Shown: positions 2,421-51,086 of the stretch, one piece after another
How the letters are laid out: every line of letters starts with the position of its first letter
Numbering within the stretch: the stretch's first letter is position 1
DNA from: a virus
Virus record (IMG/VR): IMGVR_UViG_3300046007_014223
Location: 18,802 to 82,801 of that record
Strand: one strand, 5' to 3'
Length of the DNA: 64,000 nt
Position numbers and translations under genes: made by a program
The notes under the pieces: generated by a model
What the model saw: the letters and a program-made list of their open reading frames with translations, nothing else
Told to the model about the DNA's origin: nothing
The model's database searches: none

Positions 2421-3740
2421 TTACTCAATTAGACTCATAAAGCTATCAACCTGTTCACCAATATAAGCAATTTGCTCTGGTGTAATCACAGGGCTAGTCC
2501 CGTGAAAATATGTATCTCCCATGACCTTGGTTGCATTAGGATAGTTTACTTTTGCATCGTCCGCCCTCATAATGCTCGAATAAGCGGGTTGTAGCATCAG
2601 ATTTCCTGCAAAGTAGGGTCGTGTTTGAATTAACCTGTCTTCAAGATGATTTACAATATCGATACGTTTAAATGGCGCACCATCTTTAATAGTAAGAGGG
2701 AATGCAAACCATGAAGGATCAGCACCTTTTTGTGGGCGAGGGAGGTGGAAAAATTCTTCATATTTTTCGTAAATTTTAAAAAGCAAGTTATAATTTCGCT
2801 TTCTTAGGGCATGTATTTCTTCTAGTTTGGTTAGTTGTACAAGCCCCATTGCGCCTTGTATTTCAATAGGTTTAAGATTGTAACCTATTTCATCGTAAAC
2901 GTATTTGTGATCAAAAATCTCACCACACATGTTAGGAATCCATTCAGAAAATCTTTTACCACATGTACCACATTGCAACTTATTCGCCTCAGGTCCCACG
3001 CAATAGCACCCACGACCCCATTCACGAAAGCTGCGCAAAATTACTTCTTGCTCGTATGTATTACATGCGACGAACCCACCTTCACCCATTGTCATATGAT
3101 GTGCAGGATAAAAGGAACAAGAAGCCATATCACCAAATGACCCCAAAGGTTTCCCATCATGTGTGCTTCCCAAGGCATCACAGCAATCTTCTAAAAATAT
3201 CAAATTATATTTTTTAACCAAATCCATAATTGCAGGCATATCCGGACAATTACCTAAAACATGTGCAAATGTAATTACCTTAACATTGTTTTTTCTGATA
3301 ATATCTTCTAGACCTTCAAGATTTATGTTCAAAGTATCGAGTTCGATGTCTGCGAACACAGGAACAAACCCGTTCTGAACTATGGGATTAAAGGTGGTTG
3401 GGAATCCTGCGATTGGAACTAGAACCTTAGTACCTTCAGGGAGATTGTACCCCCTCTTTGACTTTAAAGAAGTCATCATTAGCAAGTTTGCACTTGAGCC
3501 TGAGTTAGTTAGAATGCCATGATTCTTCCCAAATTGTGGAGGAAATTTTTTTTCGAAATCAAGACACTTATTACCCATAACAAGCCATCCATCAAGAAGG
3601 GTGTCCATTACTGAAGCGTACTCTCTTTCATCAAAGTAAGGCCCAGCGTAATTAACGAAGTCTTTACCTGCAACCCATTTCTTATTTTTTCCTTTATCTT
3701 TAAAGTATTCAGAAACTTTAGAAATAATTTCTTGCTTCAT
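2421..3740 (-). CDS. rfbH: CDP-4-keto-6-deoxyglucose 3-dehydratase (RfbH/DdhC, E1; PMP- and Fe-S-dependent)
   Basis: DegT/DnrJ fold (NSGSSANLL, EDCCDALGS), SFYPAHHMTMGEGG with His in place of the Schiff-base Lys, the WGRGCYC...CGTCGKRF Fe-S segment and DHKYVYDEIGYNLK. Confidence 0.88.
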   Translation of the reverse strand: MKQEIISKVSEYFKDKGKNKKWVAGKDFVNYAGPYFDEREYASVMDTLLDGWLVMGNKCLDFEKKFPPQFGKNHGILTNSGSSANLLMMTSLKSKRGYNLPEGTKVLVPIAGFPTTFNPIVQNGFVPVFADIELDTLNINLEGLEDIIRKNNVKVITFAHVLGNCPDMPAIMDLVKKYNLIFLEDCCDALGSTHDGKPLGSFGDMASCSFYPAHHMTMGEGGFVACNTYEQEVILRSFREWGRGCYCVGPEANKLQCGTCGKRFSEWIPNMCGEIFDHKYVYDEIGYNLKPIEIQGAMGLVQLTKLEEIHALRKRNYNLLFKIYEKYEEFFHLPRPQKGADPSWFAFPLTIKDGAPFKRIDIVNHLEDRLIQTRPYFAGNLMLQPAYSSIMRADDAKVNYPNATKVMGDTYFHGTSPVITPEQIAYIGEQVDSFMSLIE

Positions 3741-3741
3741 A

Positions 3742-4674
3742 TTATCCCCAATATGCAAATGTGCTTTCTAATCCAGGAACCCTGTCGCGATTTTGTGGTT
3801 GATCTATTTGTAATGGATAAATCCAATGATCATTGAACATTTGATTCCATTCATTATAACCTGAGACCTTTGCCCACCGACCACCCTTAACACCGAAGTA
3901 TAATTGTATCACACCTCCAGTTTGTATGCCAATTTTACCTAAACTTTTTGCATGATCAACGAATATTGGAGACGAGGTGCTTGCACCAGATAATAACACA
4001 TCAAAGTCATATGACTCAATCAAAGTTTTAATATGATTAACCATATCCCCCCACGTATTGCAATTAGGATATTGTCTGTCATCGATTGCGGGATGATAGG
4101 GAGCACGAATAACATCAACCAAATCAAAAGGAACAATTTTTTGCAAATTTTCTCCCCAAATTAGTTTACGCTTGTTCCATTGACTTTTAATACTATTTGC
4201 ATGAGTAGAAATTACTAAAACTTTTTTTCCCTTTAAATACTGTGTCCATGGATCAAAGGAGATTGGATGTTGAAGGTTTTCAATATAAAGTTTTGAGTAA
4301 CCCAAAAGCGATCCGGGATCAAATACCATATACCCTTCACTAAAAAAAAGAACTTTATCTTTTAGAGGTTCTGTTAAAGGCGACCCATTTCGTATGACAT
4401 TTGAAATATCAACAAATCCTATTGCATTCGCTCTAAACATACATTCATAGGTTTTCTCATATGCAACTGATATTGCATACTCAGGGGTGTTGGGATATAC
4501 ACCACCTTCAAGAATAGTTAAGGGATTAAAAAATTGTTGTGAGATGGGTGTATTTTTTGCTACACAATCCATCACATATCCTGCAGTGTTGTCAAGGCGA
4601 ATAACTGAAGCAGGCTCTCCTCTTATTAGAAGATCGCTTAAGTATTCATTCATTTCATAAAAATTTTTATTCAT
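3742..4674 (-). CDS. Putative glycosyltransferase, GT-D-fold-like
   Basis: C-terminal DFDVLLSGA...HAKSLGKIGIQTGGVIQLYFGVKGGRW resembles the GT-D-like signature; lies within a sugar island. Confidence 0.55.
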   Translation of the reverse strand: MNKNFYEMNEYLSDLLIRGEPASVIRLDNTAGYVMDCVAKNTPISQQFFNPLTILEGGVYPNTPEYAISVAYEKTYECMFRANAIGFVDISNVIRNGSPLTEPLKDKVLFFSEGYMVFDPGSLLGYSKLYIENLQHPISFDPWTQYLKGKKVLVISTHANSIKSQWNKRKLIWGENLQKIVPFDLVDVIRAPYHPAIDDRQYPNCNTWGDMVNHIKTLIESYDFDVLLSGASTSSPIFVDHAKSLGKIGIQTGGVIQLYFGVKGGRWAKVSGYNEWNQMFNDHWIYPLQIDQPQNRDRVPGLESTFAYWG

Positions 4675-5377
4675 GCTTTAGTAGTTGTACAATTTGTTGT
4701 CGGTCATTTTTAATCCAATGAAATAAAACTTTTAGATTATGAGGTAGAACATTAAATAGTTGTGCCATTTCTGTTTCAGCTTGTACCTTATTATAGTTTG
4801 TTCCTGGTGGATGATCAATGGTGTGAAAGTAATCCCGAATCACAAGTCGACCCATGAGATAACTTATCGCAGGGAAAATAATATCCCACCCCCATCCCAT
4901 TTTGTAGGGGGACATATCTATTTTTTCTTGTTTGAAAACATCAATAACATCTTTATGAATAAACCAACATGTACAATCAGGACAGGCAACAAGTTTCATT
5001 GTTTTATCTCTCAGTTCAACACCTGCAATATCTGTTCGGGTAGAATCGTACCATGTATAATCAACGTTGGGTGCATAGATTCCCCAGTTATAGGTTTCAT
5101 ATGAATCATTTGCGTCCTGTAAAAGATTTTGCCAATCCCTATAAGAAGCATCACCTTGAATATGAAAAAGAACATCACCATCAAAAAGTTCTAATGCTTT
5201 CAGGAATTGATCTGTAAAGTATGCACTTTCACCAACGTTTACCCACCCCTCATCGTTGTGTGTTTCATCTGAATTTATGATGAGAGGTGTGTGTCCAATA
5301 GAATTTAGTTGTTCTATTTTTTCTTTGGTCTTATCATACTGCCCACGCCAATTAAAAATAAATGACTGTATCTTCAC
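4667..5377 (-). CDS. Putative GT-A fold glycosyltransferase
   Basis: FIFNW N-terminus, LFHIQGDA (DxD-like), DCTCWFI, GWGWD and a C-terminal His (IDHP); context within the sugar island. Confidence 0.5.
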   Translation of the reverse strand: MKIQSFIFNWRGQYDKTKEKIEQLNSIGHTPLIINSDETHNDEGWVNVGESAYFTDQFLKALELFDGDVLFHIQGDASYRDWQNLLQDANDSYETYNWGIYAPNVDYTWYDSTRTDIAGVELRDKTMKLVACPDCTCWFIHKDVIDVFKQEKIDMSPYKMGWGWDIIFPAISYLMGRLVIRDYFHTIDHPPGTNYNKVQAETEMAQLFNVLPHNLKVLFHWIKNDRQQIVQLLKHE

Positions 5378-6248
5378 GTTTTTTTATTCTCCGATAAACA
5401 ATAGCATCAAACCAATTTAAAAAGTTATCAAGGTTAACATAATAAGGGGGAATGTTATGTACGAATTTTGGTTGTGATATGTGGCTTTTATATAAGTCCT
5501 CATTTTCATCTAACCTTTGAATGTGCTCAATAGCTTTATTAAAGTTTGCGAACCTGTGCATATTAACAAATGCATGACCATTAAAGTCTGCTGCAATTGT
5601 AGGGCTTCCCCAATAGATCGGAACCGTTTGTGCATAAAAAGCGTGTAAAATCTTTTCTGTTACATATCCCGGATGTGAATAGCTTTCAAAACAAATATTG
5701 AATTTTCTTGTTGACAGAAAATCGATTTTAGCTTTCTCTCCTTCAAGATTTGCCTCAATATTGTTGAAGTGTTTACCCCCACTATCAATCTTTTTATATT
5801 CAGATAAAGCATTATAGAAGTCATTACGTGTTTTGCAATTGGGGTTGCTTACAACAAAACTTGCAAATCCTGTCTTTTCTTTAACATCAGTAGGATTAAA
5901 AATATACTCATACTTGTAGTTTGTCTTATGAATATGTTCAAGCGCCCACATATAGATTACGAAAAGAGGCAAACGATAATGCCAAGCATGTAAATTGTGG
6001 TCAAATGAAATTGCATAATCGCAATCATATTTTTCGGGTCTTTTATTCTCACCTGTGTAGAAAATTTTAACTACATCTTTTCGCGAAAATTTTTTATTTG
6101 ATTGACCAAAATTGTCATCACCGAAAATCAAAAAATCGGGATTGTCGTGATCTAGTTCTATGTCAAATCTTCTCGCTAGAATATTGTAAAAGAAAGTAGC
6201 TATATGTTCATGCGTATCTGTAAAGCCTAATTTAATTTTTGGTTTCAT
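5352..6248 (-). CDS. Alpha-1,3/4-fucosyltransferase, GT10 family
   Basis: KIFYTGEN, FASFVVSN and the GT10 motif KFNICFES...GYVTEKILHAFYAQTVPIYWG. Confidence 0.9.
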   Translation of the reverse strand: MKPKIKLGFTDTHEHIATFFYNILARRFDIELDHDNPDFLIFGDDNFGQSNKKFSRKDVVKIFYTGENKRPEKYDCDYAISFDHNLHAWHYRLPLFVIYMWALEHIHKTNYKYEYIFNPTDVKEKTGFASFVVSNPNCKTRNDFYNALSEYKKIDSGGKHFNNIEANLEGEKAKIDFLSTRKFNICFESYSHPGYVTEKILHAFYAQTVPIYWGSPTIAADFNGHAFVNMHRFANFNKAIEHIQRLDENEDLYKSHISQPKFVHNIPPYYVNLDNFLNWFDAIVYRRIKKREDTVIYF

Positions 6249-7140
6249 TAATCACCCATTCGAATGTTTTAAAAATTGAGTCATCTGAATGATCAGTCAC
6301 ATGCTTATAATTACATTTGACCTTCACTTTGTTTGACATTGATTCATTGGGACCCTTACAAAAAGAAACAATCGTTTTACTTTCATCTTTTAAATTTTTC
6401 CCCGTCTCACAAAAAACAAAAGGTCCTGAATTTTTTCCTATAATTGCGTTACACTTTGTACTCAAATACGAGATTTCATTTAAGTCACATGTATTATGTG
6501 GACGATCAAACCAGTAAGGGTTGACACCAGTAAAGAATTGTTCAGTGTCTTGAATTATATCATCAGTGCATAAAATGTTAAATACATTTGCTTTTATTTT
6601 TTTAGTGCAAATAAAGTCAATGTCTTCGTTTTGTTTTGCAAACAGTTCAATCACTTCATTCATATCAGATTCAAATGATTGATTTGACATAGGTTTACCA
6701 TTGCAGATAAGAATTTTCTTTCTATCATTATTCGCAACAAATTTATCAACATTTGTTACATTAAAATAAGAGTAATCGACTTCAGGTAAATATCTTTCCG
6801 GATCATCATATAACTTAGCCCCCAATTTATCAAAAATTTGTTCCCAGCTTTCATATAATGATTGTAGATTTACACCCCCATGCCTTGTAAAAATATCATT
6901 CCACACACCAATCCATGTATTGATTGCAATCACTTCCCCTTGGTCATAAAATTTGATATTGTTATCTATTGTATTAGGCAAATTAGTAAGAGGTATATTT
7001 AAATCAAGATTTACCTTTGGGTGATTGTAATGCCAATACTCAAAGTTATACGAAGGAAAAATACTTTTCAAATGCCGGGCGAATTCCTTGTGAGTGAATA
7101 AATCACCCCGATGGAAATGATTGAAAAGGATGATTCTCAT
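6232..7140 (-). CDS. Hypothetical protein, probable GT-B glycosyltransferase; paralog of 45254-46216
   Basis: NHFHRGDLF, INTWIG, LICNGKPMSNQS and CDLNEISYLSTKCNAIIGKNSGPF are shared with the 45-46 kb paralog. Confidence 0.45.
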   Translation of the reverse strand: MRIILFNHFHRGDLFTHKEFARHLKSIFPSYNFEYWHYNHPKVNLDLNIPLTNLPNTIDNNIKFYDQGEVIAINTWIGVWNDIFTRHGGVNLQSLYESWEQIFDKLGAKLYDDPERYLPEVDYSYFNVTNVDKFVANNDRKKILICNGKPMSNQSFESDMNEVIELFAKQNEDIDFICTKKIKANVFNILCTDDIIQDTEQFFTGVNPYWFDRPHNTCDLNEISYLSTKCNAIIGKNSGPFVFCETGKNLKDESKTIVSFCKGPNESMSNKVKVKCNYKHVTDHSDDSIFKTFEWVINETKN

Positions 7141-7484
7141 TCGACTCCCTTGTACAATTTTACTGAATCTTCTGCCAAAGATTTCCCGCGAATGATAGCA
7201 TCATCAACCATACGATTAATAGCTTGCACAAATTTAGGACGCTTTTGTTTAAAGCAAATATCAACCTTACGCTTAATATCAGCTAGTTCCTCATCTGATT
7301 TGGCAGCTTGTGCTGCATCCTCAAGCATCCATGTGCGAATATGAAGGATGACTAGCTTTTCAATAACTTCACCCAAGTTATCTGTTGGGATGTATTCTTC
7401 AATGTCAGGCATTTGTCTTTTCGTTAATACATCTTCAACGGTTCGAATAATAATACCTTCTAGTTCTTCAGCAAATATCGTCAT
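7137..7484 (-). CDS. Small helical hypothetical protein
   Basis: ORF coupled to its neighbours; GGAGG at 7491-7495 (minus strand) precedes the ATG at 7484; motif TDNLGEVIEKLVILHIRTW. Confidence 0.6.
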   Translation of the reverse strand: MTIFAEELEGIIIRTVEDVLTKRQMPDIEEYIPTDNLGEVIEKLVILHIRTWMLEDAAQAAKSDEELADIKRKVDICFKQKRPKFVQAINRMVDDAIIRGKSLAEDSVKLYKGVE

Positions 7485-8646
7485 ATACATCCTCCATAGC
7501 GTGTTCAAGTAATTTCATATGTTTGTTTCCTACAAAGTGATTGTTTCCAATATACACACCTTGTGAATGTAAAATTTCTGCGTTTGTTTTATGTTTGTTT
7601 GTTTCAATCTTATATCCTCTGTTAACCAAAAAAGGTTGTGTAAGAAGATTGCCGCTTACAATTGGGCGATACTCAATATTATAATGTTTAAATGCTTCTT
7701 TCATGATTCTAGCGATTTTTTCACTTTTGCATACGAAAGGAAAGCAAAAACTGCTATTGCCATCTTCATACGTATGAGGATAAAAAAGTGTAGGATATTG
7801 ATTAATGATTTTAACATATTGTTCGTAGTTATGTCTACGCTGTTCAATCATCGAATCTAATCTTTTAAGTTGTGAGGATCCGAGGACCGCACAAATTTCA
7901 TGGTTCCTAAAATTGTAACCATCTGTCATAAACAAAAAAGATGGTTCAATGTGTGAATATTTCTCAGCGTATTCTTTTTGTTTTGTCGATTCGCGAGCCA
8001 TCCCATGACTTCGCTTCATACGCATCAAATCGTATAGGTCAGCATTATTAGTTGATACCATACCCCCTTCAATAGTAGACATATGGTGTCCAAAGTAAAA
8101 ACTAAAAGTCGAACCTAAACTCTTTGATCCATACTTTTCACCTTCAACATCTTTACATCCATGCGACTCACAAATGTCATCGATAATAAGAGCATTGGGA
8201 AATAGTTTTTGTAGCTTATGATTATCCGCAGGGAACCCCAATAAGTGTGTTACAAAAATTGCTTTAATGTCTTTGTACTTTTTAGCGATTTGTTTTGCAT
8301 CATCAAGATCAAAACTATAATTTTGTAAGTTAATATCACAAAATATTGGCTGTAGACCCAATTGAAAAACAGGAGAGATGTTTGTAACCCATGTACATGC
8401 AGGAACAAGGACTTTATCTCCGTCCCTTAGATTATACAATTCTTTTACAGCGGAAAGTAAAAGCGTGTTTGCTGTACTTCCACTACTTACAAAAAGTGAA
8501 TGCTTTACACCTAGCCAGTTACTCCATTCTTGTTCAAATTTCTTGACCTTCTCCCCATACGTAAATCTTTTTGCAGTCATTACGAATGACGCCATTTTTA
8601 TCCTATCACCCCATGTAATAGTTTCACCCATCAAAGGCCATTTCAT
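7468..8646 (-). CDS. colD: GDP-4-keto-6-deoxymannose 3-dehydratase (ColD-like, DegT/DnrJ family)
   Basis: SSGSTANTL, DDICESHG and FSFYFGHHMSTIEGGMV (His in place of Lys); lacks the RfbH Fe-S cysteines; lies directly downstream of gmd-fcl. Confidence 0.75.
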   Translation of the reverse strand: MKWPLMGETITWGDRIKMASFVMTAKRFTYGEKVKKFEQEWSNWLGVKHSLFVSSGSTANTLLLSAVKELYNLRDGDKVLVPACTWVTNISPVFQLGLQPIFCDINLQNYSFDLDDAKQIAKKYKDIKAIFVTHLLGFPADNHKLQKLFPNALIIDDICESHGCKDVEGEKYGSKSLGSTFSFYFGHHMSTIEGGMVSTNNADLYDLMRMKRSHGMARESTKQKEYAEKYSHIEPSFLFMTDGYNFRNHEICAVLGSSQLKRLDSMIEQRRHNYEQYVKIINQYPTLFYPHTYEDGNSSFCFPFVCKSEKIARIMKEAFKHYNIEYRPIVSGNLLTQPFLVNRGYKIETNKHKTNAEILHSQGVYIGNNHFVGNKHMKLLEHAMEDVYDDIC

Positions 8647-9578
8647 AGGAATCTCCCTCGATTTTCTTTAAACCATGCAATCGTTCTTGCAAGTCCCTCA
8701 TCAAACGATACCTTAGGCTTCCATCCAAGATCGAATAGTTTTGTGTTGTCTAGTTTTCTTCTAGGTGTGCCGTTTGGTTTGTCTGTGTTCCAAAAAATTT
8801 CACCGCTGTATCCCACCTCACGTTTAATAATTTCAGAAAGCTCTTTGATTGTAATTTCTACATCACTTCCCACATTAATATGTTCTGATGAGTTGTATTC
8901 ATTCATTAAAAATAAACAGGCGTCTGCTAGATCATCAACATAAAGAAACTCACGTGTCGGAGAACCATCACCCCATGCCTCAACAGTGTCTTGTCCTTCA
9001 AGTTTGGCATTGTAAAATTTATTAATGAGACCTGGAATTACATGACACTTATCAGGAAAGAAATTATCATTAGGTCCATACAAATTTGCAGGCATCAAAC
9101 TAATAGTGTTCAACCCATACTGCTTTGTGTAATACTTAGCCATCGTTAATCCTGCAATCTTTGCGAGCGCGTATGCATCATTCGTTGGTTCCAGCTTTGC
9201 TGATAGCAGGTATTCTTCTTTGATCGGTTGAGGTGTGACTTTAGGATAAATGCACGCCGAACCCAAAAACAATAATTTCTTTACACCTGTTTTATAAGCT
9301 GCATCAATCACATTTGATTGAATCATCAGATTATCATAAATGAAATCTGCAGGGTGTGTTGCATTGAAATTGATACCGCCGACCTTTGCTGCAGCGAGAA
9401 AAACATGCTCAGGTCGATACGTTCGAAAAAAATATTTGACAGATTCCTGATCACGTAAATCTAATGAATCTTTTGGTCGTACAATAATATCCTTGTAACC
9501 ATTTTCAGTTAGTTTTTTTACAAGAGCAGTCCCCACCAACCCGTTTCCTGCTACGTATATTCTGCTATTCTTATCCAT
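8643..9578 (-). CDS. fcl: GDP-L-fucose synthase / GDP-colitose synthase (epimerase-reductase)
   Basis: [58 protein letters not shown]. Confidence 0.93.
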
Positions 9579-41600: not shown

Positions 41601-42437
41601 CTACTTCAGGCCCATTGTTTTACGTATTTTTGTGGCACTAATTGAGTGTATATTATCATCAAAAACTTCTTGCTCTATCTTATATCCCACATCTCGACCA
41701 TACGTTATATTTACAATGTTGGGGACTGCAATAATCTCATACTGACCTTGATAATGAGGGTCTAGATCTCTGCGAATAAAGTTTTTAACTTGCTGAATTG
41801 CAAAGGGATTACTATCATTCCACCCCTGACAATCACGAATCATAATACAAACTTGACCCGTTTTAGCAAGAGCTCTTTCGAATAGTGCACGATGACCTGC
41901 ATGCCAAGGTTGCCATCGGCCCAACATTTGAACGCTTTCTTTTTGCCAATCAAATCTTGGACGACGAAGATTTTGCACAATTCTTTCACCCACATAAGGA
42001 ACCCATGCTTCAGCATTTTGTTCTGTTATACGAAAATCATACTGTTCTGGTGGTATAAATGCCTTATTTGTGTCATCAAATCTACCTTCTGCAATGGTAT
42101 CCATCCAGATTGTCCAATCTGCTTTAAAGTTGTTTCGCATCTCTACAAGAGGCGCTACAAAATCGCAAATTACATATTCTTCATTACAAGAAAGAGCGAA
42201 TTCAAGCATTCGAATAGATTGACGAATTCTTCCTTCAGTGGTGAAATCCCAATCATTATACTTTCTTCGTACTTCGTCAGCATTAAACCACTTTACTCGA
42301 GCGTTTAGGTTTTGAAAGGGTGTATCAGGTGCAGATGATAGATCCCTTTTTCCGTGCTTCTCAAGGTAAATTTTTAATCTTTCTGCAAAGTATGTCTTTC
42401 CTGCCCCAGGAAGACCCATAATAAGAATTTTTTGCAT
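41601..42437 (-). CDS. Adenylylsulfate kinase-like P-loop domain fused to an HxGH nucleotidyltransferase domain
   Basis: N-terminal IMGLPGAGKT, NADEVR, DFTTEGRIRQ, DFVAP (CysC-like). C-terminal MLGRWQPWHAGH...YGRDVGY...ISATKIR (cytidylyltransferase-like). Confidence 0.75.
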   Translation of the reverse strand: MQKILIMGLPGAGKTYFAERLKIYLEKHGKRDLSSAPDTPFQNLNARVKWFNADEVRRKYNDWDFTTEGRIRQSIRMLEFALSCNEEYVICDFVAPLVEMRNNFKADWTIWMDTIAEGRFDDTNKAFIPPEQYDFRITEQNAEAWVPYVGERIVQNLRRPRFDWQKESVQMLGRWQPWHAGHRALFERALAKTGQVCIMIRDCQGWNDSNPFAIQQVKNFIRRDLDPHYQGQYEIIAVPNIVNITYGRDVGYKIEQEVFDDNIHSISATKIRKTMGLK

Positions 42438-42438
42438 A

Positions 42439-42696
42439 TTAAGCCAACGCTGCCTTTCCATTAGTAATTGCTGCTGTAAGATCGGATAGATCGCCCCCAA
42501 GTTCAACAACTTGTGGATCTGACATAACGATTTCTAAATGAGCAACGTTGCGTTCAATATTTCCGCGACCTTCTTCTGAAAGCACTCCTGTGTCAGCTTT
42601 CTTTTGAAGTTCATTTGTAACAACCCAAACGCTGTCACGTGCTGCTCGTACTGTTCCATCTACTCTTTGCTGTGCTGTTAGTTGTTGTTCAAGCAT
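42439..42696 (-). CDS. Hypothetical protein, 85 aa
   Basis: Tightly packed between the sulfotransferase and the kinase. Confidence 0.6.
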   Translation of the reverse strand: MLEQQLTAQQRVDGTVRAARDSVWVVTNELQKKADTGVLSEEGRGNIERNVAHLEIVMSDPQVVELGGDLSDLTAAITNGKAALA

Positions 42697-42697
42697 T

Positions 42698-43630
42698 TTA
42701 AGCTCCTATTATAAATGAAGGATTTTCTTGTGTTATGGGGAGTTCATTATCTGGAAGAAATTCTTCTTGAGGAATTTCTTCATTCATTGTACGCCAAAAT
42801 TCAGCGTTCTTACATTTATTTATAATTGTTTCAGATAAAATTTCAGCAGGATTTATACCACGACGACCCAAAGTTGTACGAACATCATGCATGTCTGCCA
42901 TTCCATATACTTGACCATCGTTTTCTTGGTGAATATTTACCAGGTTTGCAAAGTCATGTTTGAAGTAGTCCTCTTCAAGAAAGTCGTAAATTTTTTCCAT
43001 GGTATCTTGTGGATTATCAAGTAAATCATCATATTCGACAAAGTGTAAAGCCCTTTGTTGTCCTTGCATGATGCATTGCTTTAACCCCTCATAACTTTGA
43101 CCTAAAATGCCCATGGGGCTTGCTAATAGCTCACATCGATTATCATCTGTTAGTGGGAGATTTGATTTAACAAGCATTTCATCAAGAAAATTAAGTTTTA
43201 CGCTATCAACTTTTTGAAGATTTCTTCTTTGCATTGCGATGAACGATGCAAGGATTTCATCAATACTTCTAACAGGGCAAATAACTTTTGGCTGAATGCC
43301 AAAGTATCCTGAAATATAATGTAACCGATTAACCCATGATCTGTTTTTATCAATGATTACGGGTTTGTCAACATCCATATAAAATTGTGGCAAAATGTTT
43401 GCAATCATTTGTGCAGCAATTTGTGGTTTTGGATACGCTAAAAACAATTCATCTTGTGCCAAAGATGTTTCAAGAGCAAGCATCGTAGGCACTACAGGCG
43501 AGCTAGGTCCGGAATAGATTCGTGGATTTTGATTTAAAATAGCAGATAATAGAGTGCTACCCGCTCGAGGCAGTCCTGCCATAAAGTAATAAGATTTTGG
43601 TTCAATTTGTTTTGGGGGTTCATTAGCCAT
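42698..43630 (-). CDS. Sulfotransferase family protein
   Basis: 5'-PSB loop AGLPRAGSTLL, IDKNRSW, 3'-PB region ICPVRSIDEILAS, VEYDDLLDNP..TM.KIYDFL. Confidence 0.88.
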   Translation of the reverse strand: MANEPPKQIEPKSYYFMAGLPRAGSTLLSAILNQNPRIYSGPSSPVVPTMLALETSLAQDELFLAYPKPQIAAQMIANILPQFYMDVDKPVIIDKNRSWVNRLHYISGYFGIQPKVICPVRSIDEILASFIAMQRRNLQKVDSVKLNFLDEMLVKSNLPLTDDNRCELLASPMGILGQSYEGLKQCIMQGQQRALHFVEYDDLLDNPQDTMEKIYDFLEEDYFKHDFANLVNIHQENDGQVYGMADMHDVRTTLGRRGINPAEILSETIINKCKNAEFWRTMNEEIPQEEFLPDNELPITQENPSFIIGA

Positions 43631-43639
43631 AATAATCTC

Positions 43640-44539
43640 CTATTGCTTGTCCACAGATTCAATAATCTTATTTACATCAAACAATTTTACATCTTCTGTG
43701 AAAGGATATTCATGTTCATTCCCGTTAAAATCAAAGTCAAATAGATAGCTTCCGGGAAGTTTAAAGTCGTATGGAATTTCTGTGCAAATATTATCATGCA
43801 TATCATAACCAAATACCTTGGGGCTTGTTCCATTCCATAAAACGGTTGATTTTTTATTCATTGCAGCCGCGGCGTGTTGCAAACTTGAATCGATTAAAAT
43901 TCTTTTTTTTGCATGGAGTAAAATGGTAAAAAATTCAATCAAACTTAAAGATTGTTGAGGTGTAGCAAAAATGTGTTCTGCTCCATCAAGTTTTGGTGAG
44001 TTAAATTTTGTTACCTGATAGATGTGATAATCATTTTTGTAATGATTAATAAGATCCTGAGCAATATCGGGAGGCATGTCACGTGTCCATGCATATGGTT
44101 TTGCGTCAGTTGCCATCAATCCCCCGTTTGTATGAATCAACATTAGAGGTTTGTTTCTTTGCCAGAAAGTTTTTGATAAGTCAAATTGCAACTTGTTAAA
44201 CTTTAAAATTGGCATTTCATTATTATACTTCAATCCATACATCTCACACCAGTTAGGGATAAGTCTTTTTCTTTTGTGAATGTGATTTGTAGTAAAGTAG
44301 GGTTCGTGATGGAACAAAATAGAATCTTTATCTTGAACATACCTTTGATAAAAATAACTTGTATTACCCAAAGTATATACACGTTCGACAAAGTTTAGAT
44401 TTATAAACAAATCTGGGTAAGCACAAACCACAATTAGTTTTCTATCTGGGTAGTTGTTTTTAATGCACCTTGCTACAGCGGTCGCTGCTACATGTTTACC
44501 AATCCCCCCTTGAAGGTGGAAAATACTATATTTACTCAT
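43640..44539 (-). CDS. GT-B glycosyltransferase, GT9/heptosyltransferase-like
   Basis: GGIGKHVAATAV, LIVVCAYP, LIDSSLQHAAAA.NKKSTVLW.GT.P..FGY. Confidence 0.6.
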   Translation of the reverse strand: MSKYSIFHLQGGIGKHVAATAVARCIKNNYPDRKLIVVCAYPDLFINLNFVERVYTLGNTSYFYQRYVQDKDSILFHHEPYFTTNHIHKRKRLIPNWCEMYGLKYNNEMPILKFNKLQFDLSKTFWQRNKPLMLIHTNGGLMATDAKPYAWTRDMPPDIAQDLINHYKNDYHIYQVTKFNSPKLDGAEHIFATPQQSLSLIEFFTILLHAKKRILIDSSLQHAAAAMNKKSTVLWNGTSPKVFGYDMHDNICTEIPYDFKLPGSYLFDFDFNGNEHEYPFTEDVKLFDVNKIIESVDKQ

Positions 44540-45261
44540 AATTTCCTCATTGTGTTTTGTACAATTTCCCAATTTCTTCCATTAAAGAAATGATTATATC
44601 GGTACACGTTTACAGTATCAAGATCAATTCTTCTTTGAACACTTTGTTTTATATCTTCACTGACAATAGTTTTTGAAACTACACCATGAATCTTGCTTGT
44701 TTTTAAAGTATAAATATTTTTGCATCGTTGAATCAAATAATCATCCCCATACCACACTTGATATAAACTTGGTATTACACGATAAGATGATCTTTTCACA
44801 AACATACACACACCATAAGCAAAACTCTGCCCACCAATAGGTTGTGACTTATTTACGTTTAAGCGAATAAGTTCTTCTTTTCTATCGGGATGGTTGGTGA
44901 TGTGATAGTTGGTGATACCATCCTTTAAATGCACTCCGATTATGTCTATTTCGGAAAAATCTAAATTTTGCATAAACTCAAAAACACCATCTTCAACATA
45001 TATATCATCGTTTAAAAGATTGATTATATCTGCGTTTGAACGATAGTATCCTTCATTCCATGCAGGGTTCACATAAATATTTTTGCCATAATTAACTAAG
45101 GTCAACTTATCGTGTTTGATTAAATCTTTTGGGCGTTTAACATAATCATTGTCGATTACAATGATCTTATTGATAGACTTACACTCACAATATTTTTTTA
45201 AAGCATCGGGGAAGTTTTCATCTCGCCACATTGTGGGAATAATCACATCAATTTTATTCAT
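44536..45261 (-). CDS. GT2 family glycosyltransferase
   Basis: VIIPTMW, IIVIDN, NIYVNPAWN.G, LLNDDI, WYGDDY. Confidence 0.75.
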   Translation of the reverse strand: MNKIDVIIPTMWRDENFPDALKKYCECKSINKIIVIDNDYVKRPKDLIKHDKLTLVNYGKNIYVNPAWNEGYYRSNADIINLLNDDIYVEDGVFEFMQNLDFSEIDIIGVHLKDGITNYHITNHPDRKEELIRLNVNKSQPIGGQSFAYGVCMFVKRSSYRVIPSLYQVWYGDDYLIQRCKNIYTLKTSKIHGVVSKTIVSEDIKQSVQRRIDLDTVNVYRYNHFFNGRNWEIVQNTMRKL

Positions 45262-46216
45262 ATCTAGATAAGTTTATAATTAATCCATGAGATAATTTTA
45301 TTGCACTTTCAATTGCGTTTGCTACAAGATTGGGTGACTCTGCTGCAGTAAAGAAATATTTGCAAGGCAGATTTTTAATGTGGTGGGGATAGCAGTCACT
45401 CACATTGTGACTCATCGCAACAAAAATCTTGTTAACATTATTTATATTCTCTTTAACATGAGTAAACATGAAAGGACCCGAATTCTTTCCCATGATAGTG
45501 TCACAATGTGTTGACATGTATGCAATCTCATTTAAGTCACAATCAATATTGAATATATCAGAGGTAAAATATACATTGTTTAATTTTGTTTCAAATTTTT
45601 CTGTGCAAATGAAAGTATCAGTCGAATAAGTTTTAGCTAAATGTTCTATTATAGGGGCAAGGTTATCCAATCCGCTTTGCATACTACGAACTTTTCCATT
45701 ACAAATCAAATGTTTTTTACCTTTATGTTGTTGCAGGAAGTTATCAGCTGATTTGATTTCATAAACACTCCAATTTACTTTTGGAACATAAAGTAAAGGA
45801 TTGTCACTCAAAATTATATCACACCCATGGTTCTTATTTAAATAGTCAATTATAAAAGTATAAATTTTATGTAATGACAAGTAATTTGCGTGACCTTCTC
45901 CTGGGAGGTTTGCCACAAACTCTTTGTGGTCGCCCATTCGCGCTTGATTTTGATAAAAGTACGCTCCCACCCATGTGTTGATGTAGATGGTTTCATCTGT
46001 TTCAAAAATCTTATTGTAGTTTAGTTGTTCGACTTGCCATTTTTTCAAATCAGGCTTAAATTGTGTGCGAATAAGATCAGTAACGATCTTTGAATTGCAC
46101 ACATGATAGTAGCCGAACTTTACGTTAGGGAGCGAGTCTTTAATGTGTTTAAGGTAACCTCGACCTGAAAAAACGTCACCATTATGCCACAGATTGTAGA
46201 ATAGAATGTTTTTCAT
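45254..46216 (-). CDS. Hypothetical protein, probable GT-B glycosyltransferase; paralog of 6232-7140
   Basis: NLWHNGDVF, INTWVG, LICNGKVRSMQS, CDLNEIAYMSTHCDTIMGKNSGPF. Confidence 0.45.
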   Translation of the reverse strand: MKNILFYNLWHNGDVFSGRGYLKHIKDSLPNVKFGYYHVCNSKIVTDLIRTQFKPDLKKWQVEQLNYNKIFETDETIYINTWVGAYFYQNQARMGDHKEFVANLPGEGHANYLSLHKIYTFIIDYLNKNHGCDIILSDNPLLYVPKVNWSVYEIKSADNFLQQHKGKKHLICNGKVRSMQSGLDNLAPIIEHLAKTYSTDTFICTEKFETKLNNVYFTSDIFNIDCDLNEIAYMSTHCDTIMGKNSGPFMFTHVKENINNVNKIFVAMSHNVSDCYPHHIKNLPCKYFFTAAESPNLVANAIESAIKLSHGLIINLSRYE

Positions 46217-46853
46217 TATAATCTTTTTCAAAGTTACCTTTGTACATTTTAACACCCAAATGAGCTACAGTGTGTTTGGGGTTAACCCAAATTTCATAAC
46301 CCAACTCTTTTATCTTTCGTGATAAAGTGATATCTTCACCGACGAATGAATCATTCCGAACAGAAAATTCACAAATGTTTTTTAAAATTTTACCTCGAAA
46401 AGATATTTCAGGATTGGATTGCCATAAGTCAGTTAACACTTTTCGAGACAGCTTTACAAACCCAGTTCCAACTTTTTGAACGTTGATATATCCATCTGTA
46501 GGATCAACTTTACTATTCTCCGAAAGGTAGACATTATATTCAATCTTTTTGTCACCCTTATTGACAACGGGAACAGCAACGACATCCTTCGGAGACTTAA
46601 GAATTTCAATGAGAATATTCGGACTCCAGTATTCATCATCATCGATGAATACCATGTGATCATAACCTTGAGTATAAGCAAGGTTGAACAATTCGTTTCT
46701 TGCCATGGGGAGAATTGATTCATTAGAAAGGAAGACTGCGTTAATCGCAAGATCTTCTTTCAACCCCAATTTAATTGATTCACATAAACTGTGAACATAA
46801 TATGCATCAACTTTACCATATAAACATGGTGTGGCTATCAAAATCTTTTTCAT
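46182..46853 (-). CDS. GT-A fold (GT2-like) glycosyltransferase; paralog of 26637-27464
   Basis: LIATPCLYG, NESILPMARN, FIDDD, VGTGFVKLSR, GEDITL, VAHLG. Confidence 0.75.
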   Translation of the reverse strand: MKKILIATPCLYGKVDAYYVHSLCESIKLGLKEDLAINAVFLSNESILPMARNELFNLAYTQGYDHMVFIDDDEYWSPNILIEILKSPKDVVAVPVVNKGDKKIEYNVYLSENSKVDPTDGYINVQKVGTGFVKLSRKVLTDLWQSNPEISFRGKILKNICEFSVRNDSFVGEDITLSRKIKELGYEIWVNPKHTVAHLGVKMYKGNFEKDYNEKHSILQSVA

Positions 46854-46874: not shown

Positions 46875-46882
46875 TATTTATT
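46875..46882 (-). promoter_or_regulatory. Late promoter variant AATAAATA upstream of the second GT island
   Basis: One mismatch to TATAAATA, 21 nt upstream of the 46853 ATG and its GGAG RBS; AT-rich background lowers confidence. Confidence 0.45.
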
Positions 46883-49800
46883 TAGATTCAATCGCCTCAA
46901 TTCTTGCTTTTAATTGATCAATCTCCGCTGACATTTCTTTTATAGCATTAACCAGAATAGGTATCAAATAATCGCTTGTTATTTGTAACTTATCTGGAGT
47001 ATCGTCACTGACGATAACCTTTTCAACACCCTCTAATGCTGCAATTTCTTGTGCACTAAATCCATAACGTTTTTTATTTGGAGGATCAGTAATTTCATTC
47101 GTTATACGGTTTTTGAATGCATAAGCTATAGGATTAACATTACTTAAAAATCCTCTTCCATGTGGGACAGGGCCGAAAATACATTTATCACGAATATCAG
47201 AAACAGCTGTCCAAGCAATTTGTATTTGAGCACAAGCGTGGGAGCTATTGCCCATAATAATACGATTTGATTCAGTCGTTATGTTTGCAAGACCAGTAGC
47301 TCCTACCCCACTACAACATCCGAAGAATATGTTATTAGTACCTGTAGTGTTACAATTTCCGGCACACAAACCAGCAAAAAGATTATGATTTCCATTAATA
47401 CTTTCTATACCTGCCGATGTTCCTATAAAAATATTATGATTTCCCGTAGTATTTGAAAACCCCGCGGCCCACCCAATAAACGTATTATAAGTGCCGGAAT
47501 CATTACAATAACCTGTAGCTCTGCCAATAAAGTTATTGTGACAACCATTGACATTATTTGTACCTGCAGAAGTACCAATAAACGTATTATAAGTGCCAAT
47601 ATTATAAGCACCTGATGCAGTGTTTTCTCCTATAAAGATGTTTTTTGACCCGGTTGTATTTCTATAACCTGCATTTTTACCTAGAGCAATATTTAAATTA
47701 CCTGTAGTATTATTATATCCTGCGTCGAGACCAAAGAAGTTATTATAACAACCTGTAGTATTACATCCACCTGCATTACGACCAAAGAAATTATTATGAT
47801 TACCTGTTGTGTTACTTAAAGCTGTTAATGTTCCGAAGAAATTATTATAACTACCTGTGGTATTCTTATTTCCTGCACTTAATCCAAAAAAGTTATTATT
47901 GCAACCTGTACTATTACAACAACCTGCGCCATTACCAAAGAAGTTATTATGAATACCTGTAGTATTGTAACGACCCGCATAACGACCAAAGAAACTATTA
48001 TTACAACCTGTGGTATTACAACGACCCGCACTTAATCCAAAAAAGTTGTTGTCACAGCCAGTAGTATTTAAACAACCTGTAGCGCGCCCAAAGAAGTTGT
48101 TGTTCCTGGCTGTCGTATTGCCGCATCCAGCACACCGTCCTAAGAAGTTATTATCACAACCTGTGGTATTACAACGACCTGCATTTTCTCCAATAAAGTT
48201 ATTGTAGGAACCTGTAGTATTGTAACGACCCGCCCAAAATCCAAAGAAGCTATTATGAACACCTGTAGTATTTAAACATCCTGCGTAACAACCAAAGAAG
48301 TTATTATTACAACCTGTAGTATTGCAGAACCCAGCACGGCGGCCAATGAAGATGTTTTCACAGCCGATGGTGTTGTTGTACCCCGCAAAAAAACCAAAGA
48401 AGTTATTTGAAACGCCTGTAGTGTTACTACGACCTGCACTAAATCCGGCAAAGAAATTATATGATCCAAATGTTGTACAACGACCTGCATACCGTCCAAT
48501 AAAGATATTATGACAACCTGTTGCTGTTAATGCACAGGCATCAACAACAGTAAAGTTCTTTTGTGCATCTAATGTTGCTCCACCACCCCCACCTGCACTA
48601 ATGGTCACATTAGACGCTGCAGTAATACGACCTTGTGCGTCAACTGTTATCACAGGAACTATAGTAGAATTTCCATAAGTGGCTGCCGTTACACCACTAG
48701 TAGCTAACCCAACAGTGATTACGTTACCTTCACCTGTAGTACCTGTTGCTGTTATACCTGTACCACCAACAACACGATCTGTGTAGTTTCCTGTTGTATC
48801 TGTTCCAAGTGCAACAGAGTTTGACGCAACAGTTAATGTTACATCTAATGAATTAGTATTTTGATTGGTTAAGTTAAGATTAGCTGTACCTGTTACATCA
48901 CCCGTAAATCTTAAATTAACCGCAGGTTTGTTTGTTGTTATACCATAATTTCTATCAATAGCTACATTAGATGCACTTGTTACTCTACCCGTAGTATCAA
49001 CTGTTACTTGTGATACCACATTTGCATTACCGTAACTACCTGCTGTAACACCACTGGTAGCTAATGCAACAGTGATTACGTTACCTTCACCTGTAGTACC
49101 TGTAGCAGTAATACCTGTGCCTCCAACAACACGATCTGTGTAGTTTCCTGTTGTATCTGTTCCTAAGGCAACAGAATTGGTTGCGACAGTTAATGTTACA
49201 TCTAATGAATTAGTATTTTGATTGGTTAAGTTAAGATTAGCTGTACCCGTAACATCGCCAGTAAATCTTAAATTAACCGCAGGTTTGTTTGTAGTTATAC
49301 CATAATTTCTATCAATTAATAAGTTGGCTGCTGATGTTACTCTACCAGTAGTATCAAGTGTTACTCGTGGCACAGCATTTGCATTACCGTAACTGCCCGC
49401 AGTTACACCACTGGTAGCTAATGCAACAGTTATAACATTACCTTCATCTGCTGTACCTGTAGCAGTAATACCTGTACCTCCAACAACACGATTTGTGTAG
49501 TTTCCTGTTGTATCTGTACCTAAAGCGACAGAGTTTGTTGCTATCGTAGTTGTTATTGATATAACAGTTGAATTAGCCGTCAAAACTGCGTTTGCTGTTC
49601 CGGTAACATCACCTGTTAATATTATATTAGCCGCAGGATCATTAACAAAATTATTATAGTTTAAATAATACGTTGAATCTTGTCCGTCTAGTAAGTCTGA
49701 ATCACTTGCCTTTGCCGTTAATCCTAAGTAACGTGTATCAAGGTTAGCTGTAGCTACTGAAGCTGCTGTTACATGCCCAAATGTATCGAATTCTAAAGAT

Positions 49801-51086
49801 ACGTCCTGAATGACAATACCATTTGAGTTGTCACTAGATACGTTTGCTACAGAGCTAGTATCAGCATGTGAGACGGTTATAACATTACCTTCGTCGGCTG
49901 TACCTGTTGCTGTTATACCCGTTCCTGCGACAACTGTATTAGTATAATTTCCTGTTGTATCTGTTCCTAAAGCGACAGAGTTTGTTGCTACAGTTAATGT
50001 TACATCTAATGAATTAGTATTTTGATTGGTTAAGTTAAGATTAGCTGTACCAGTAACATCTCCAGTAAAGTTTAAATTAACCGCAGGTTTGTTTGTTGTT
50101 ATACCATAATTTCTATCAATTAATAGGTTAGATGCACTAGTTACTCTACCAGTAGCGTCTACAGTAATTTGTGACACAGCATTTGCATTACCGTAAATAC
50201 CTGCCGTTACTCCGCTTGTTCCTAAACCAACTGTAATTACGTTACCTTCACCTGTAGTGCCTGTTGCTGTTATACCTGTACCACCAACAACCCTATCGGT
50301 ATAGTTTCCTGTTGTATCTGTTCCTAAAGCGACAGAGTTTGCTCCAACAGTTAATGATACATCCAAGGAATTAGTATTTTGATTACTTAAGTTAAGATTA
50401 GCTGTACCTGTTACATCACCCGTAAATCTTAAATTAACTGCAGGTTTGTTTGTAATAGACGCATAAGCGGGTGTTGCTGTTACATTAGATGCGCTTGTAA
50501 TTCTTCCCTTAGCATCTACGGTAATGGCAGGTATACTTGTCACCCCACCATATGTGGTAGCAACTACTCCTGAATTGGGAAGTGAGGTTGAACTTCCTAA
50601 AGTGCCTGTAATATTTCCGCTCACACTAATGTTGCCTGCAACCACATTATTTGTAGCAATCAAATTAGCCGCAATGATGTTTGCTGATGCAACTACAGAG
50701 TTTCCAGTATTTGTGGTAAGTGTTATGCTGTTACCTTGCAAATCACCATTTACATTTAGTTTAAATCCTCCATCAGTCGCTGTTCCGATGAGAACGTTTC
50801 CACTGTATTGCGCTATGCGAACTTGACCCGTATCATACACTTCTAGAGAAGGGATACCTGATATATCATTTACACTGTAAATAACACCTGTCAAAGAGTT
50901 TTCTATACTAAAAAGCTGACCCGCACTTCCTTCCCAACTTAATGTGCCATTTCCTGTGGGATATGTTCGAACTGTTATATTATAAGGACCTAATGTTGCA
51001 TTTCCTGCAGTAAAAACTATCTTCGGATCATCAACAGACGATCCTTTATTAGGTGTAATTACAATATCTTTATCGGTATTTGCCAT
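46878..51086 (-). CDS. Long tail/virion fibre with shaft repeats, NTTG beta-roll repeats and a C-terminal S74-like intramolecular chaperone
   Basis: ~120-aa shaft repeats, ~28 14-aa NTTG repeats, then W..VSD.RDK...YGFSAQE...LIPILVNAIKE and a terminal coiled coil. Confidence 0.8.
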   Translation of the reverse strand: MANTDKDIVITPNKGSSVDDPKIVFTAGNATLGPYNITVRTYPTGNGTLSWEGSAGQLFSIENSLTGVIYSVNDISGIPSLEVYDTGQVRIAQYSGNVLIGTATDGGFKLNVNGDLQGNSITLTTNTGNSVVASANIIAANLIATNNVVAGNISVSGNITGTLGSSTSLPNSGVVATTYGGVTSIPAITVDAKGRITSASNVTATPAYASITNKPAVNLRFTGDVTGTANLNLSNQNTNSLDVSLTVGANSVALGTDTTGNYTDRVVGGTGITATGTTGEGNVITVGLGTSGVTAGIYGNANAVSQITVDATGRVTSASNLLIDRNYGITTNKPAVNLNFTGDVTGTANLNLTNQNTNSLDVTLTVATNSVALGTDTTGNYTNTVVAGTGITATGTADEGNVITVSHADTSSVANVSSDNSNGIVIQDVSLEFDTFGHVTAASVATANLDTRYLGLTAKASDSDLLDGQDSTYYLNYNNFVNDPAANIILTGDVTGTANAVLTANSTVISITTTIATNSVALGTDTTGNYTNRVVGGTGITATGTADEGNVITVALATSGVTAGSYGNANAVPRVTLDTTGRVTSAANLLIDRNYGITTNKPAVNLRFTGDVTGTANLNLTNQNTNSLDVTLTVATNSVALGTDTTGNYTDRVVGGTGITATGTTGEGNVITVALATSGVTAGSYGNANVVSQVTVDTTGRVTSASNVAIDRNYGITTNKPAVNLRFTGDVTGTANLNLTNQNTNSLDVTLTVASNSVALGTDTTGNYTDRVVGGTGITATGTTGEGNVITVGLATSGVTAATYGNSTIVPVITVDAQGRITAASNVTISAGGGGGATLDAQKNFTVVDACALTATGCHNIFIGRYAGRCTTFGSYNFFAGFSAGRSNTTGVSNNFFGFFAGYNNTIGCENIFIGRRAGFCNTTGCNNNFFGCYAGCLNTTGVHNSFFGFWAGRYNTTGSYNNFIGENAGRCNTTGCDNNFLGRCAGCGNTTARNNNFFGRATGCLNTTGCDNNFFGLSAGRCNTTGCNNSFFGRYAGRYNTTGIHNNFFGNGAGCCNSTGCNNNFFGLSAGNKNTTGSYNNFFGTLTALSNTTGNHNNFFGRNAGGCNTTGCYNNFFGLDAGYNNTTGNLNIALGKNAGYRNTTGSKNIFIGENTASGAYNIGTYNTFIGTSAGTNNVNGCHNNFIGRATGYCNDSGTYNTFIGWAAGFSNTTGNHNIFIGTSAGIESINGNHNLFAGLCAGNCNTTGTNNIFFGCCSGVGATGLANITTESNRIIMGNSSHACAQIQIAWTAVSDIRDKCIFGPVPHGRGFLSNVNPIAYAFKNRITNEITDPPNKKRYGFSAQEIAALEGVEKVIVSDDTPDKLQITSDYLIPILVNAIKEMSAEIDQLKARIEAIESK
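48600..50520 (-). repeat. ~360-bp (120-aa) internal shaft repeats
   Basis: NKPAVNL.FTGDVTGTANLNL.NQNTNSLDV.LTV..NSVALGTDTTGNYT occurs four times here and again in the 52747-58359 gene, with near-identical DNA. Confidence 0.85.

Follow-up and report, generated by a model that had tools for sequence, protein, structure and literature searches.

How might a phage that encodes a sulfotransferase provide that enzyme with activated sulfate? The question is raised by a tailoring-gene island in IMG/VR virus record IMGVR_UViG_3300046007_014223, of which we analysed positions 18,802 to 82,801 (64,000 nucleotides, hereafter the window, whose own numbering is used throughout). On the minus strand of this window, a sulfotransferase of 310 amino acids (aa; 42698-43630), an 85-aa open reading frame (ORF; 42439-42696) and a 278-aa fusion protein (41601-42437) are encoded one after the other. 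A preliminary description had placed the fusion two genes downstream of the sulfotransferase, had divided it into a CysC-like kinase and a GRWQPWHAGH…ISAT.IR domain and had suggested that it could be a stripped-down bifunctional synthase of 3'-phosphoadenosine 5'-phosphosulfate (PAPS). Both the gene order and the two domains were confirmed, with motifs at aa 8-15, 173-182 and 266-272 and with Pfam matches across the family and the predicted fold in agreement. We propose, at a probability of roughly 0.7, that the gene encodes a compact two-step PAPS synthase, for which the support comes from comparative genomics. Adenosine 5'-phosphosulfate (APS) and PAPS are favoured as products because of the sulfotransferase neighbourhood in phages, the fusion of the same nucleotidyltransferase to genuine CysC in other proteins, the operons and co-distribution in SAR86 bacteria that lack Sat, CysD and AprA, and a link to aprBA in SAR11.

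The fusion gene is not a chance ORF, since its product has more than 8000 homologues at E≤0.001, including 278-aa relatives with 76-96% identity, and since an AlphaFold2 model built on an alignment of 55 diverse full-length relatives reached a mean predicted local distance difference test score (pLDDT) of 92.7 and a predicted template modelling score (pTM) of 0.83. Within the enclosing ORF (41601-42509, minus strand; stop codon at 41601-41603), translation from the ATG at 42437 yields 278 aa, and almost every close homologue is equally long. On its own, the window protein matches Pfam families weakly (KTI12, E 2.8e-5; APS_kinase, 1e-4; CTP_transf_like, 3e-3). Against PF01583 it scored 22.8 bits for a cut-off of 21.1 with no single stretch above the cut-off, and it fell below both TIGR00455 and the NCBIfam adenylyl-sulfate kinase subfamily (18 bits against a cut-off of 127). 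We therefore assigned the domains from the family as a whole and from the fold. APS_kinase was the best Pfam family in 49 of the 55 full-length relatives (best 2.5e-18) and CTP_transf_like was matched in 35, while a Foldseek search with the full model returned APS kinases at ranks 1-11 (among them 7yq1, 2ofw and 2yvu; E 1e-5 to 7e-5, TMt 0.58-0.72), with gluconate kinase close behind.

When aligned with genuine CysC, the kinase domain (aa 1-158; 41964-42437) keeps the Walker A motif or P-loop (GLPGAGKT, aa 8-15; 42393-42416), D54, R57, F65, R70, an SFISP-like strand (here DFVAP) and R119-F120. In Mycobacterium tuberculosis CysC, the equivalent of D54 is the catalytic base Asp480, and those of F65 and F120 are Phe492 and Phe576, which sandwich the APS adenine (PMC4373884). 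D54 and R57 belong to NADEVR (aa 52-57; 42267-42284), the counterpart of LDGDxxR in APS kinases, in which the first Asp has become Asn. The domain has also undergone a 13-aa deletion after the SFISP-like strand and an 11-aa deletion in the lid (KGLYKKAR), and the kinases of the phage clade carry a specific insert of 19 aa at aa 29-47. Because of the two deletions and the Asp-to-Asn change, the alignment identifies the kinase as a divergent, trimmed relative of APS kinase and not as a standard CysC.

The second half is a mini nucleotidyltransferase (NT) of the HIGH superfamily (aa 160-278; 41604-41960), a candidate ATP sulfurylase whose 119 residues fold confidently in a model of their own (pLDDT 87.9). 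Invariant in the NT family are GRxQPxHxGH, an RD after strand 2, NP, PNI, YGRxVGY and ISxTxIR. In the window protein these include the HxGH nucleotide-binding motif GRWQPWHAGH (aa 173-182; 41892-41921), in which G173, R174, Q176, P177, H179, G181 and H182 are invariant or nearly so; YGRDVGY (aa 246-252; 41682-41702), invariant except for D, which is replaced by G in bacterial homologues; and ISATKIR (aa 266-272; 41622-41642), the second nucleotidyltransferase signature. NCBIfam gave weak matches to NMNAT/NadM over residues 169-239, and a profile of stand-alone NT versions searched against PDB sequences retrieved the archaeal/NadM NMNAT enzymes 2qjt (5e-10) and 1f9a (2.9e-9). The alignment with NMNAT ends after strand 3 and picks up again only at ISxT, and the window protein stays far below the hidden Markov models of the NMNAT family (TIGR01527, 26.8 against 127 bits; PRK01153, 23.3 against 181 bits). 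PF01747, the Sat family, did not match the window protein and matched 1 of the 55 relatives (3.9e-4), and 119 residues leave no room for a PUA-like domain. Judged by these profiles, the NT domain falls outside the Sat family and derives from an archaeal/NadM-type NMNAT. The suggestion of a stripped-down PAPS synthase is supported with a correction: all the comparative tests pointed towards APS/PAPS metabolism, while the small domain is by sequence an NMNAT derivative and not a trimmed Sat.

A GRD motif in common with Sat was also weighed as an argument. Four SAR11 Sat sequences contain HxGH, GRDHAG and ISGTxIR-like motifs in the same order as the NT domain, with QTRNIPHxGH in two and HTRNxPHxGH in the other two where the NT domain reads GRWQPWHAGH. 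This argument proved unusable because bacterial homologues of the NT read YGRGVGY and because hhalign (39% probability) pairs the Sat GRD with the NT's IRD and not with YGRD. The structural comparison of the C-terminal domain with Sat and NMNAT, which had been put forward as a check, was informative only in part. Foldseek with the NT domain alone found nothing at E≤0.001, while VIA-align placed it close to PPAT (Z 9.7), NadM/archaeal NMNAT (9.2-9.6) and the Thermus thermophilus ATP sulfurylase 1v47 (8.4), with other Sat structures at 5.6-6.2. The modelled fold is that of a minimal HIGH-superfamily nucleotidyltransferase and does not tell us the substrate. Two further candidate roles were rejected. 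The NT is unlikely to replace NadD or CoaD, since both canonical enzymes are present above curated cut-offs in the complete Pelagibacter genome G001 and the mini-NT would fill neither role. An ADP-heptose route of the HldA/HldC type had been prompted by a weak GT9 match next door; the fusion kinase is a P-loop enzyme of the APS type, and to our knowledge the HldA/HldC pathway has no 3'-phosphorylation step.

The same NT is joined to kinases in other proteins too, and the two halves also occur apart. In a representative library clustered at 50% identity, protein P0228 carries the mini-NT in the opposite order, N-terminal to a bona fide CysC whose kinase half matches PF01583 at 5.7e-63 and TIGR00455 with 233.6 bits against a cut-off of 138.7. 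This NT-CysC architecture (~310 aa) makes up at least 120 clusters at 90% identity, many of them from Tara Oceans and from NCBI genomes. The NT is followed by the trimmed kinase in P0214, a DUF4118-kinase-NT arrangement occurs in P0156, and stand-alone forms of either half are common. A possible triple fusion, P0173 (489 aa), was found in the same library and was not used as evidence. It consists of a 250-aa N-terminal part, a trimmed kinase and an NT without HxGH; a TPRTGS motif in the N-terminal part is reminiscent of the PAPS-binding loop of sulfotransferases, and BLASTP of P0173 against the window sulfotransferase gave nothing meaningful.

In bacteria, a scan of one genome per species located the mini-NT in at least 590 places, including Pelagibacteraceae, SAR86, SAR116 and Marinoscillum. 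Typically, a kinase gene of 135 aa overlaps an NT gene of ~125 aa, the two being fused in some, and across 12 bacterial taxon groups no neighbour was conserved besides the kinase-NT pair itself. We then tabulated SAR86 (61 genomes of the order) and SAR11 (121 genomes), all at ≥80% completeness. Among the SAR86 genomes, 28 encode the mini-NT, every time with the trimmed kinase, and 32 encode Sulfotransfer_3. The two coincide in 26 genomes and are both absent from 27, with 2 having the NT only and 6 the sulfotransferase only (Fisher p=2.6e-9, uncorrected for shared ancestry). Sulfotransferase, kinase and NT follow one another on one strand in at least 10 SAR86 genomes, in the same order as in the phage and with an 8-nt overlap between kinase and NT. 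Sat was found in only 1 of the 61 genomes and a real CysD likewise in 1, the one genome that also has CysNC. No other candidate APS-making enzyme was found in the SAR86 genomes with the sulfotransferase-kinase-NT operon, and in the complete SAR86 genome G002, Sat, CysD/H and AprA were not found while two strong sulfotransferases are present. A conserved gene for a 318-aa protein comes after the operon on the same strand (L285, 1510-2466; L286, 3965-4921), its start overlapping the NT stop or lying a few bases past it.

SAR11 showed a different association. The mini-NT is present in 99 of the 121 genomes, Sulfotransfer_3 in 90, AprA in 101 (above cut-off in 100) and Sat in 5. These tallies include one unpublished genome (G087), on which none of the claims rests and without which each count shifts by at most 1. 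Mini-NT and AprA occur together in 97 genomes and are both missing from 18, with 2 having the NT only and 4 AprA only (p=1e-15, again without correction for common descent). In one subclade (L203, L204), the kinase-NT operon adjoins a 116-aa ORF, followed on the opposite strand by aprA, aprB and an aprM-like gene. In the sat-aprMBA clusters of sulfur oxidisers, sat normally holds that position. Canonical CysNC was restricted to SAR11 genomes without the mini-NT (5 of 22 vs 0 of 99; p=1.3e-4), and in a mini-NT-negative genome (G035), Sat adjoins a sulfotransferase. Most SAR11 are reported to lack ATP sulfurylase despite having AprAB (bioRxiv 10.1101/2022.09.23.509140), and sulfotransferases are carried in SAR11 hypervariable regions (bioRxiv 10.64898/2026.04.03.716430; PMC2217521).

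Several other features of the SAR11 genomes are recorded here as observations. The 116-aa ORF between aprA and the kinase-NT pair is conserved (2999-3349 in L203, G025:C23:1500-9500; 2993-3343 in L204), and a 264-aa membrane protein encoded upstream of aprB in that subclade may be AprM-like. Two low-GC islands (L202, G035:C2:152000-163000, at 4543-9118; L200, G125, at 2656-4926) contain a short canonical CysC, a pyruvate-kinase-like gene and a TauE/SafE-like permease, with a Sat-like gene and a sulfotransferase in G035 only; they resemble an additional PAPS cassette, of conventional type, within glycan islands. Approximately 19 mini-NT-positive SAR11 genomes carry an additional stand-alone CysC without Sat.

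The source phage is a T4-like myovirus from a lake or ocean. Its contig of 82.8 kb has an estimated completeness of 46%, and its terminase shares only ~48% identity with the terminases of cyanomyophages and Pelagibacter phage HTVC008M. On the minus strand, the tailoring-gene island precedes the neck genes gp13/14/15 and the terminase. The sulfotransferase (Sulfotransfer_3 and Sulfotransfer_1; phrog_27463) scores 59.5 bits with PF13469 (E 7.5e-16; cut-off 27 bits). No other protein of the whole contig matches PF13469, and the enzyme is presumed to be the PAPS user of the locus. Gaps of 1-2 nt separate the sulfotransferase, the 85-aa ORF and the fusion, and from the junctions TAAAATG and TAATATG we conclude that the three are almost certainly co-translated. 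The 85-aa ORF is kept in ~12 related phage loci.

A scan of viral contigs identified 406 loci encoding a relative of the fusion, and neighbourhoods within 6 kb were compared for the best 80. The sulfotransferase cluster was the commonest neighbour (44 of these 80 loci, and roughly 19 of the 30 with full flanks), its members being 25% to 93% identical to the window sulfotransferase; other neighbours were glycosyltransferases and methyltransferases. On some contigs (L010-L012), the whole island of sulfotransferase, fusion, GT9-like, GT2-like and fibre genes is situated away from the neck genes with the sulfotransferase still adjoining the fusion. Among 25 TerL-anchored relatives with enough upstream DNA, both genes were absent from that place in 24 and both present in 1. 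Separately, large proteins with RCC1 repeats (PF00415, 13 repeats) are often encoded near the fusion gene (L069:1126-3669 and 25 other related viral loci). The "bacterial" matches closest to the phage NT (L084, L085 and L090; 74-82% identity, fused, 263-274 aa) lie on lake contigs of 2-3 kb from metagenome-assembled genomes (MAGs) assigned to Bacteroidetes and Melainabacteria and are probably phage fragments binned by mistake.

From the domain architecture, conserved residues, folds, gene neighbourhoods and phyletic patterns observed, we infer both catalytic activities, sulfate as the substrate and the nature of the sulfated acceptor. In the mechanism that we propose, the C-terminal HxGH/ISxT domain of ~115 aa would adenylylate sulfate (ATP + sulfate → APS + pyrophosphate), and the fused trimmed kinase would convert APS to PAPS by phosphorylating its 3'-OH. 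Because the equilibrium of sulfate adenylylation lies far on the side of the substrates, tight coupling to a kinase is reasonable on thermodynamic grounds: the second step would pull the first forward. The PAPS may then feed the sulfotransferase encoded two genes upstream, which could work with the adjoining glycosyltransferases on a glycan of the virion or of the infected cell. The preliminary description had spoken of a phage self-sufficient for sulfation; this assumes sulfate uptake by the host as well as disposal of 3'-phosphoadenosine 5'-phosphate. In its simplest role, the NT would catalyse the reversible ATP-sulfurylase reaction, from sulfate to APS in SAR86 and the phage, which require PAPS, and possibly backwards behind AprAB in SAR11. 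In its widest form, the proposal is that the ~115-aa domain constitutes a third, so far unrecognised class of ATP sulfurylase that arose from NMNAT-type adenylyltransferases; that together with the lid-less kinase it is the cryptic PAPS synthase of SAR86 and SAR11, both considered incapable of sulfate activation, and the "missing" sulfurylase of SAR11 sulfite oxidation through AprAB; and that aquatic phages captured and fused the pair for their own sulfotransferases. We consider this wider claim probable, if less so than the synthase itself.

A number of observations weigh against assigning PAPS synthesis to the fusion. The nearest sequence family of the NT domain is archaeal/NadM NMNAT and not Sat, its profile matched no Sat chain among PDB sequences at E≤10, and the hhalign comparison with a four-sequence Sat profile was weak and covered part of the domain only. 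The fold does not discriminate the substrate either, because PPAT, NMNAT and one ATP sulfurylase lie within ~1.3 Z. In the kinase, the first Asp of LDGD is replaced (xNAD), and the lid deletion is common to the phage, SAR11 and SAR86 forms; the corresponding segment in M. tuberculosis CysC carries Arg559 and Lys562, which are required for ATP binding and transition-state stabilisation (PMC4373884). Six SAR11 and 5 SAR86 genomes have a sulfotransferase with no recognisable PAPS route, for which genome incompleteness may account, and the phyletic correlations in both groups take no account of shared ancestry. Among the phages, about one-third of the fully flanked loci have no sulfotransferase within 6 kb. 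PF13469 has no match in Xylella phages Sano and Bacata, Stenotrophomonas phage DLP_6 and two large viral contigs, where the fusion is ~40% and 75% identical to the window protein. An overlap of a few bases between the fusion gene and a COG3236/NADAR gene in Sano-like phages hints at NAD/ADP-ribose chemistry. We also noted that in these siphophages (L001, Sano, 5559-6732; L003, Bacata, 4559-5735) MazG and a cupin gene labelled "cysteine dioxygenase" are found close to the fusion.

These points leave three other explanations to be weighed against a PAPS synthase. It is unlikely, in our estimate, that only the kinase half is concerned with sulfur and uses APS made by the host (through Sat, CysDN or AprAB), with the NT doing another job such as adenylylation of nicotinamide mononucleotide (NMN) or nicotinic acid mononucleotide, or serving as a regulatory or nucleotide-binding module. 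Such a division of labour would agree with the NT being nearest to NMNAT in sequence and fold, and AprAB could give SAR11 its APS, but neither Sat, CysD nor AprA was found as an APS source in the SAR86 genomes with sulfotransferase-kinase-NT operons. It would also leave us to ask why, over 12 taxon groups and with no other conserved neighbour, an APS-kinase-type enzyme is in every case either fused to the NT or encoded next to it, and Pelagibacter G001 already possesses canonical NadD and CoaD. A variant that shares the two-step logic, in which a compound other than sulfate (a phospho-sugar, a phosphopantetheine-like compound or NMN) is adenylylated and then phosphorylated at the 3'-OH to give another 3'-phospho-adenylyl donor for the adjoining tailoring enzymes, appears improbable to us. 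The two kinase deletions, including the lid, could open up the small phosphosulfate pocket, and many loci without a sulfotransferase have glycosyl- and methyltransferases instead. Nevertheless, the NT is fused as well to an unmodified CysC of equivalog level, the pocket of which fits APS, and the NT is associated most strongly with PAPS-dependent sulfotransferases and with APS reductase.

The remaining explanation, which we regard as the least probable, is NAD salvage or counter-defence as in NadR, with the kinase phosphorylating nicotinamide riboside and the NT turning NMN into NAD+ to restore NAD depleted by a defence system. The best NCBIfam and PDB matches of the NT are indeed NMNAT/NadM, phage NadR and NadM systems are known, NADAR has been reported beside NAD salvage genes (PMC9503650), and in Sano-like phages the gene overlaps COG3236/NADAR with MazG nearby. 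Against this, the kinase resembles APS kinases and has retained the residues by which APS adenosine is bound, its position relative to the NT is opposite to that in NadR, and ~50 NMNAT residues are absent, including the helices after strands 3 and 4. NAPRTase and NadV were not found on the contig, itself 46% complete, and salvage would explain neither why the NT is fused to genuine CysC nor why it is linked to aprBA and sulfotransferases. Even when combined, the three explanations seem to us rather unlikely; they stay alive because the NT descends from NMNAT, because the kinase has lost its lid and because the Sano-type phages link the fusion to NADAR and have no sulfotransferase.

Upstream of the sulfotransferase, the island continues with four more genes on the minus strand (43640-46853): one GT9-like by a weak match, one GT2-like, a 333-aa ORF and one phrog_1574/glycosyltransferase-like. 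These four accompany the sulfotransferase and the fusion in related phages, even at other genome positions. Directly upstream of the island, a fibre-like protein of 1402 aa (46878-51086, minus strand) contains many near-identical repeats of ~95 aa (…NKPAVNL.FTGDVTGTANLNL…SVALGTDTTGNYT…), an extended series of degenerate ~17-aa "NNFFG..AG..NTTG" repeats and, at its C terminus, a part resembling chaperone/peptidase S74 domains; it could be a glycosylated or sulfated target.

SAR86 and SAR11 are among the most abundant bacteria in the ocean and are textbook cases of missing sulfate-assimilation genes. If the small domain of the fusion and of its bacterial counterparts does adenylylate sulfate, it would represent a third enzymatic route to sulfate activation beside Sat and CysDN, and the smallest of the three. 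The mini sulfurylase would be invisible to current annotation, its genes being labelled "kinase", "CysC" or "hypothetical". It would explain how PAPS reaches the sulfotransferases of surface-glycan islands in SAR86 and SAR11, as well as the fate of the APS that AprAB produces in SAR11, where earlier work has pointed to a gap (bioRxiv 10.1101/2022.09.23.509140). For phages, donor synthesis, transferase and glycosyltransferases would together form a self-contained sulfation cassette, carried as an auxiliary module. In the literature, we found no description of the NT as the second domain of such proteins or as a sulfurylase, and no proposal of this new sulfurylase. Auxiliary metabolic genes of the CysC family are on record from lake viromes, where they were interpreted as assimilatory sulfate reduction (bioRxiv 10.1101/655167), and these would need re-reading if they are members of the kinase-NT family.

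Several known systems provide a comparison. Metazoan PAPSS1/2 (PDB 1x6v, 2ofx) likewise has an N-terminal kinase, to which the phage kinase half is a structural match, and a C-terminal sulfate-adenylylating domain, and it resembles the fusion in the proposed two-step chemistry and in its pairing with sulfotransferases. It is much larger (~620 aa vs 278 aa), and its C-terminal half is a Sat-family domain with a PUA-like module, whereas the phage protein has an NMNAT-like minimal fold of ~115 aa and a kinase without the lid. With bacterial CysC (PF01583/TIGR00455; M. tuberculosis 4bzp, Archaeoglobus fulgidus 7yq1), the kinase shares the fold, P-loop, catalytic Asp, Args, Phe-Phe adenine sandwich and SFISP-like strand, but differs in its 13-aa and 11-aa (lid) deletions, the xNAD in place of LDGD and the 19-aa insert.

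The NT domain shares GRxQPxHxGH, NPF and ISxTxIR with archaeal/NadM NMNAT (TIGR01527, PRK01153; 1f9a, 1ej2, 2qjt; Z 9.2-9.6). It is ~50 residues shorter than that ~170-aa domain and has invariant RD and YGRxVGY motifs of its own, and unlike NMNAT it never lies beside the NAD-salvage partners NadV and Nudix, its partners being an APS-type kinase, sulfotransferases and AprBA. NadR (NMNAT plus ribosylnicotinamide kinase), known in phages (PMC9503650), also unites a HIGH nucleotidyltransferase and a P-loop kinase in one protein. In NadR, on the other hand, the NMNAT comes first, the kinase belongs to another family, a helix-turn-helix domain is usual (absent from the phage fusion) and the partners differ; AAA_28, the ribosylnicotinamide-type kinase family, gave a weak match in 15 of the 55 relatives vs 49 for APS_kinase. 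Sat (PF01747; T. thermophilus 1v47, yeast 1j70) is likewise a HIGH-superfamily enzyme, and its HxGH, Arg-containing loop and ISGTxIR-like motif follow one another as in the mini-NT (fold match to 1v47, Z 8.4). The mini-NT is one-third of its size, lacks the PUA-like domain and the QxRN sulfate motif and has no significant sequence match to it, yet in one SAR11 subclade the kinase-NT pair takes the genomic position next to aprBA.

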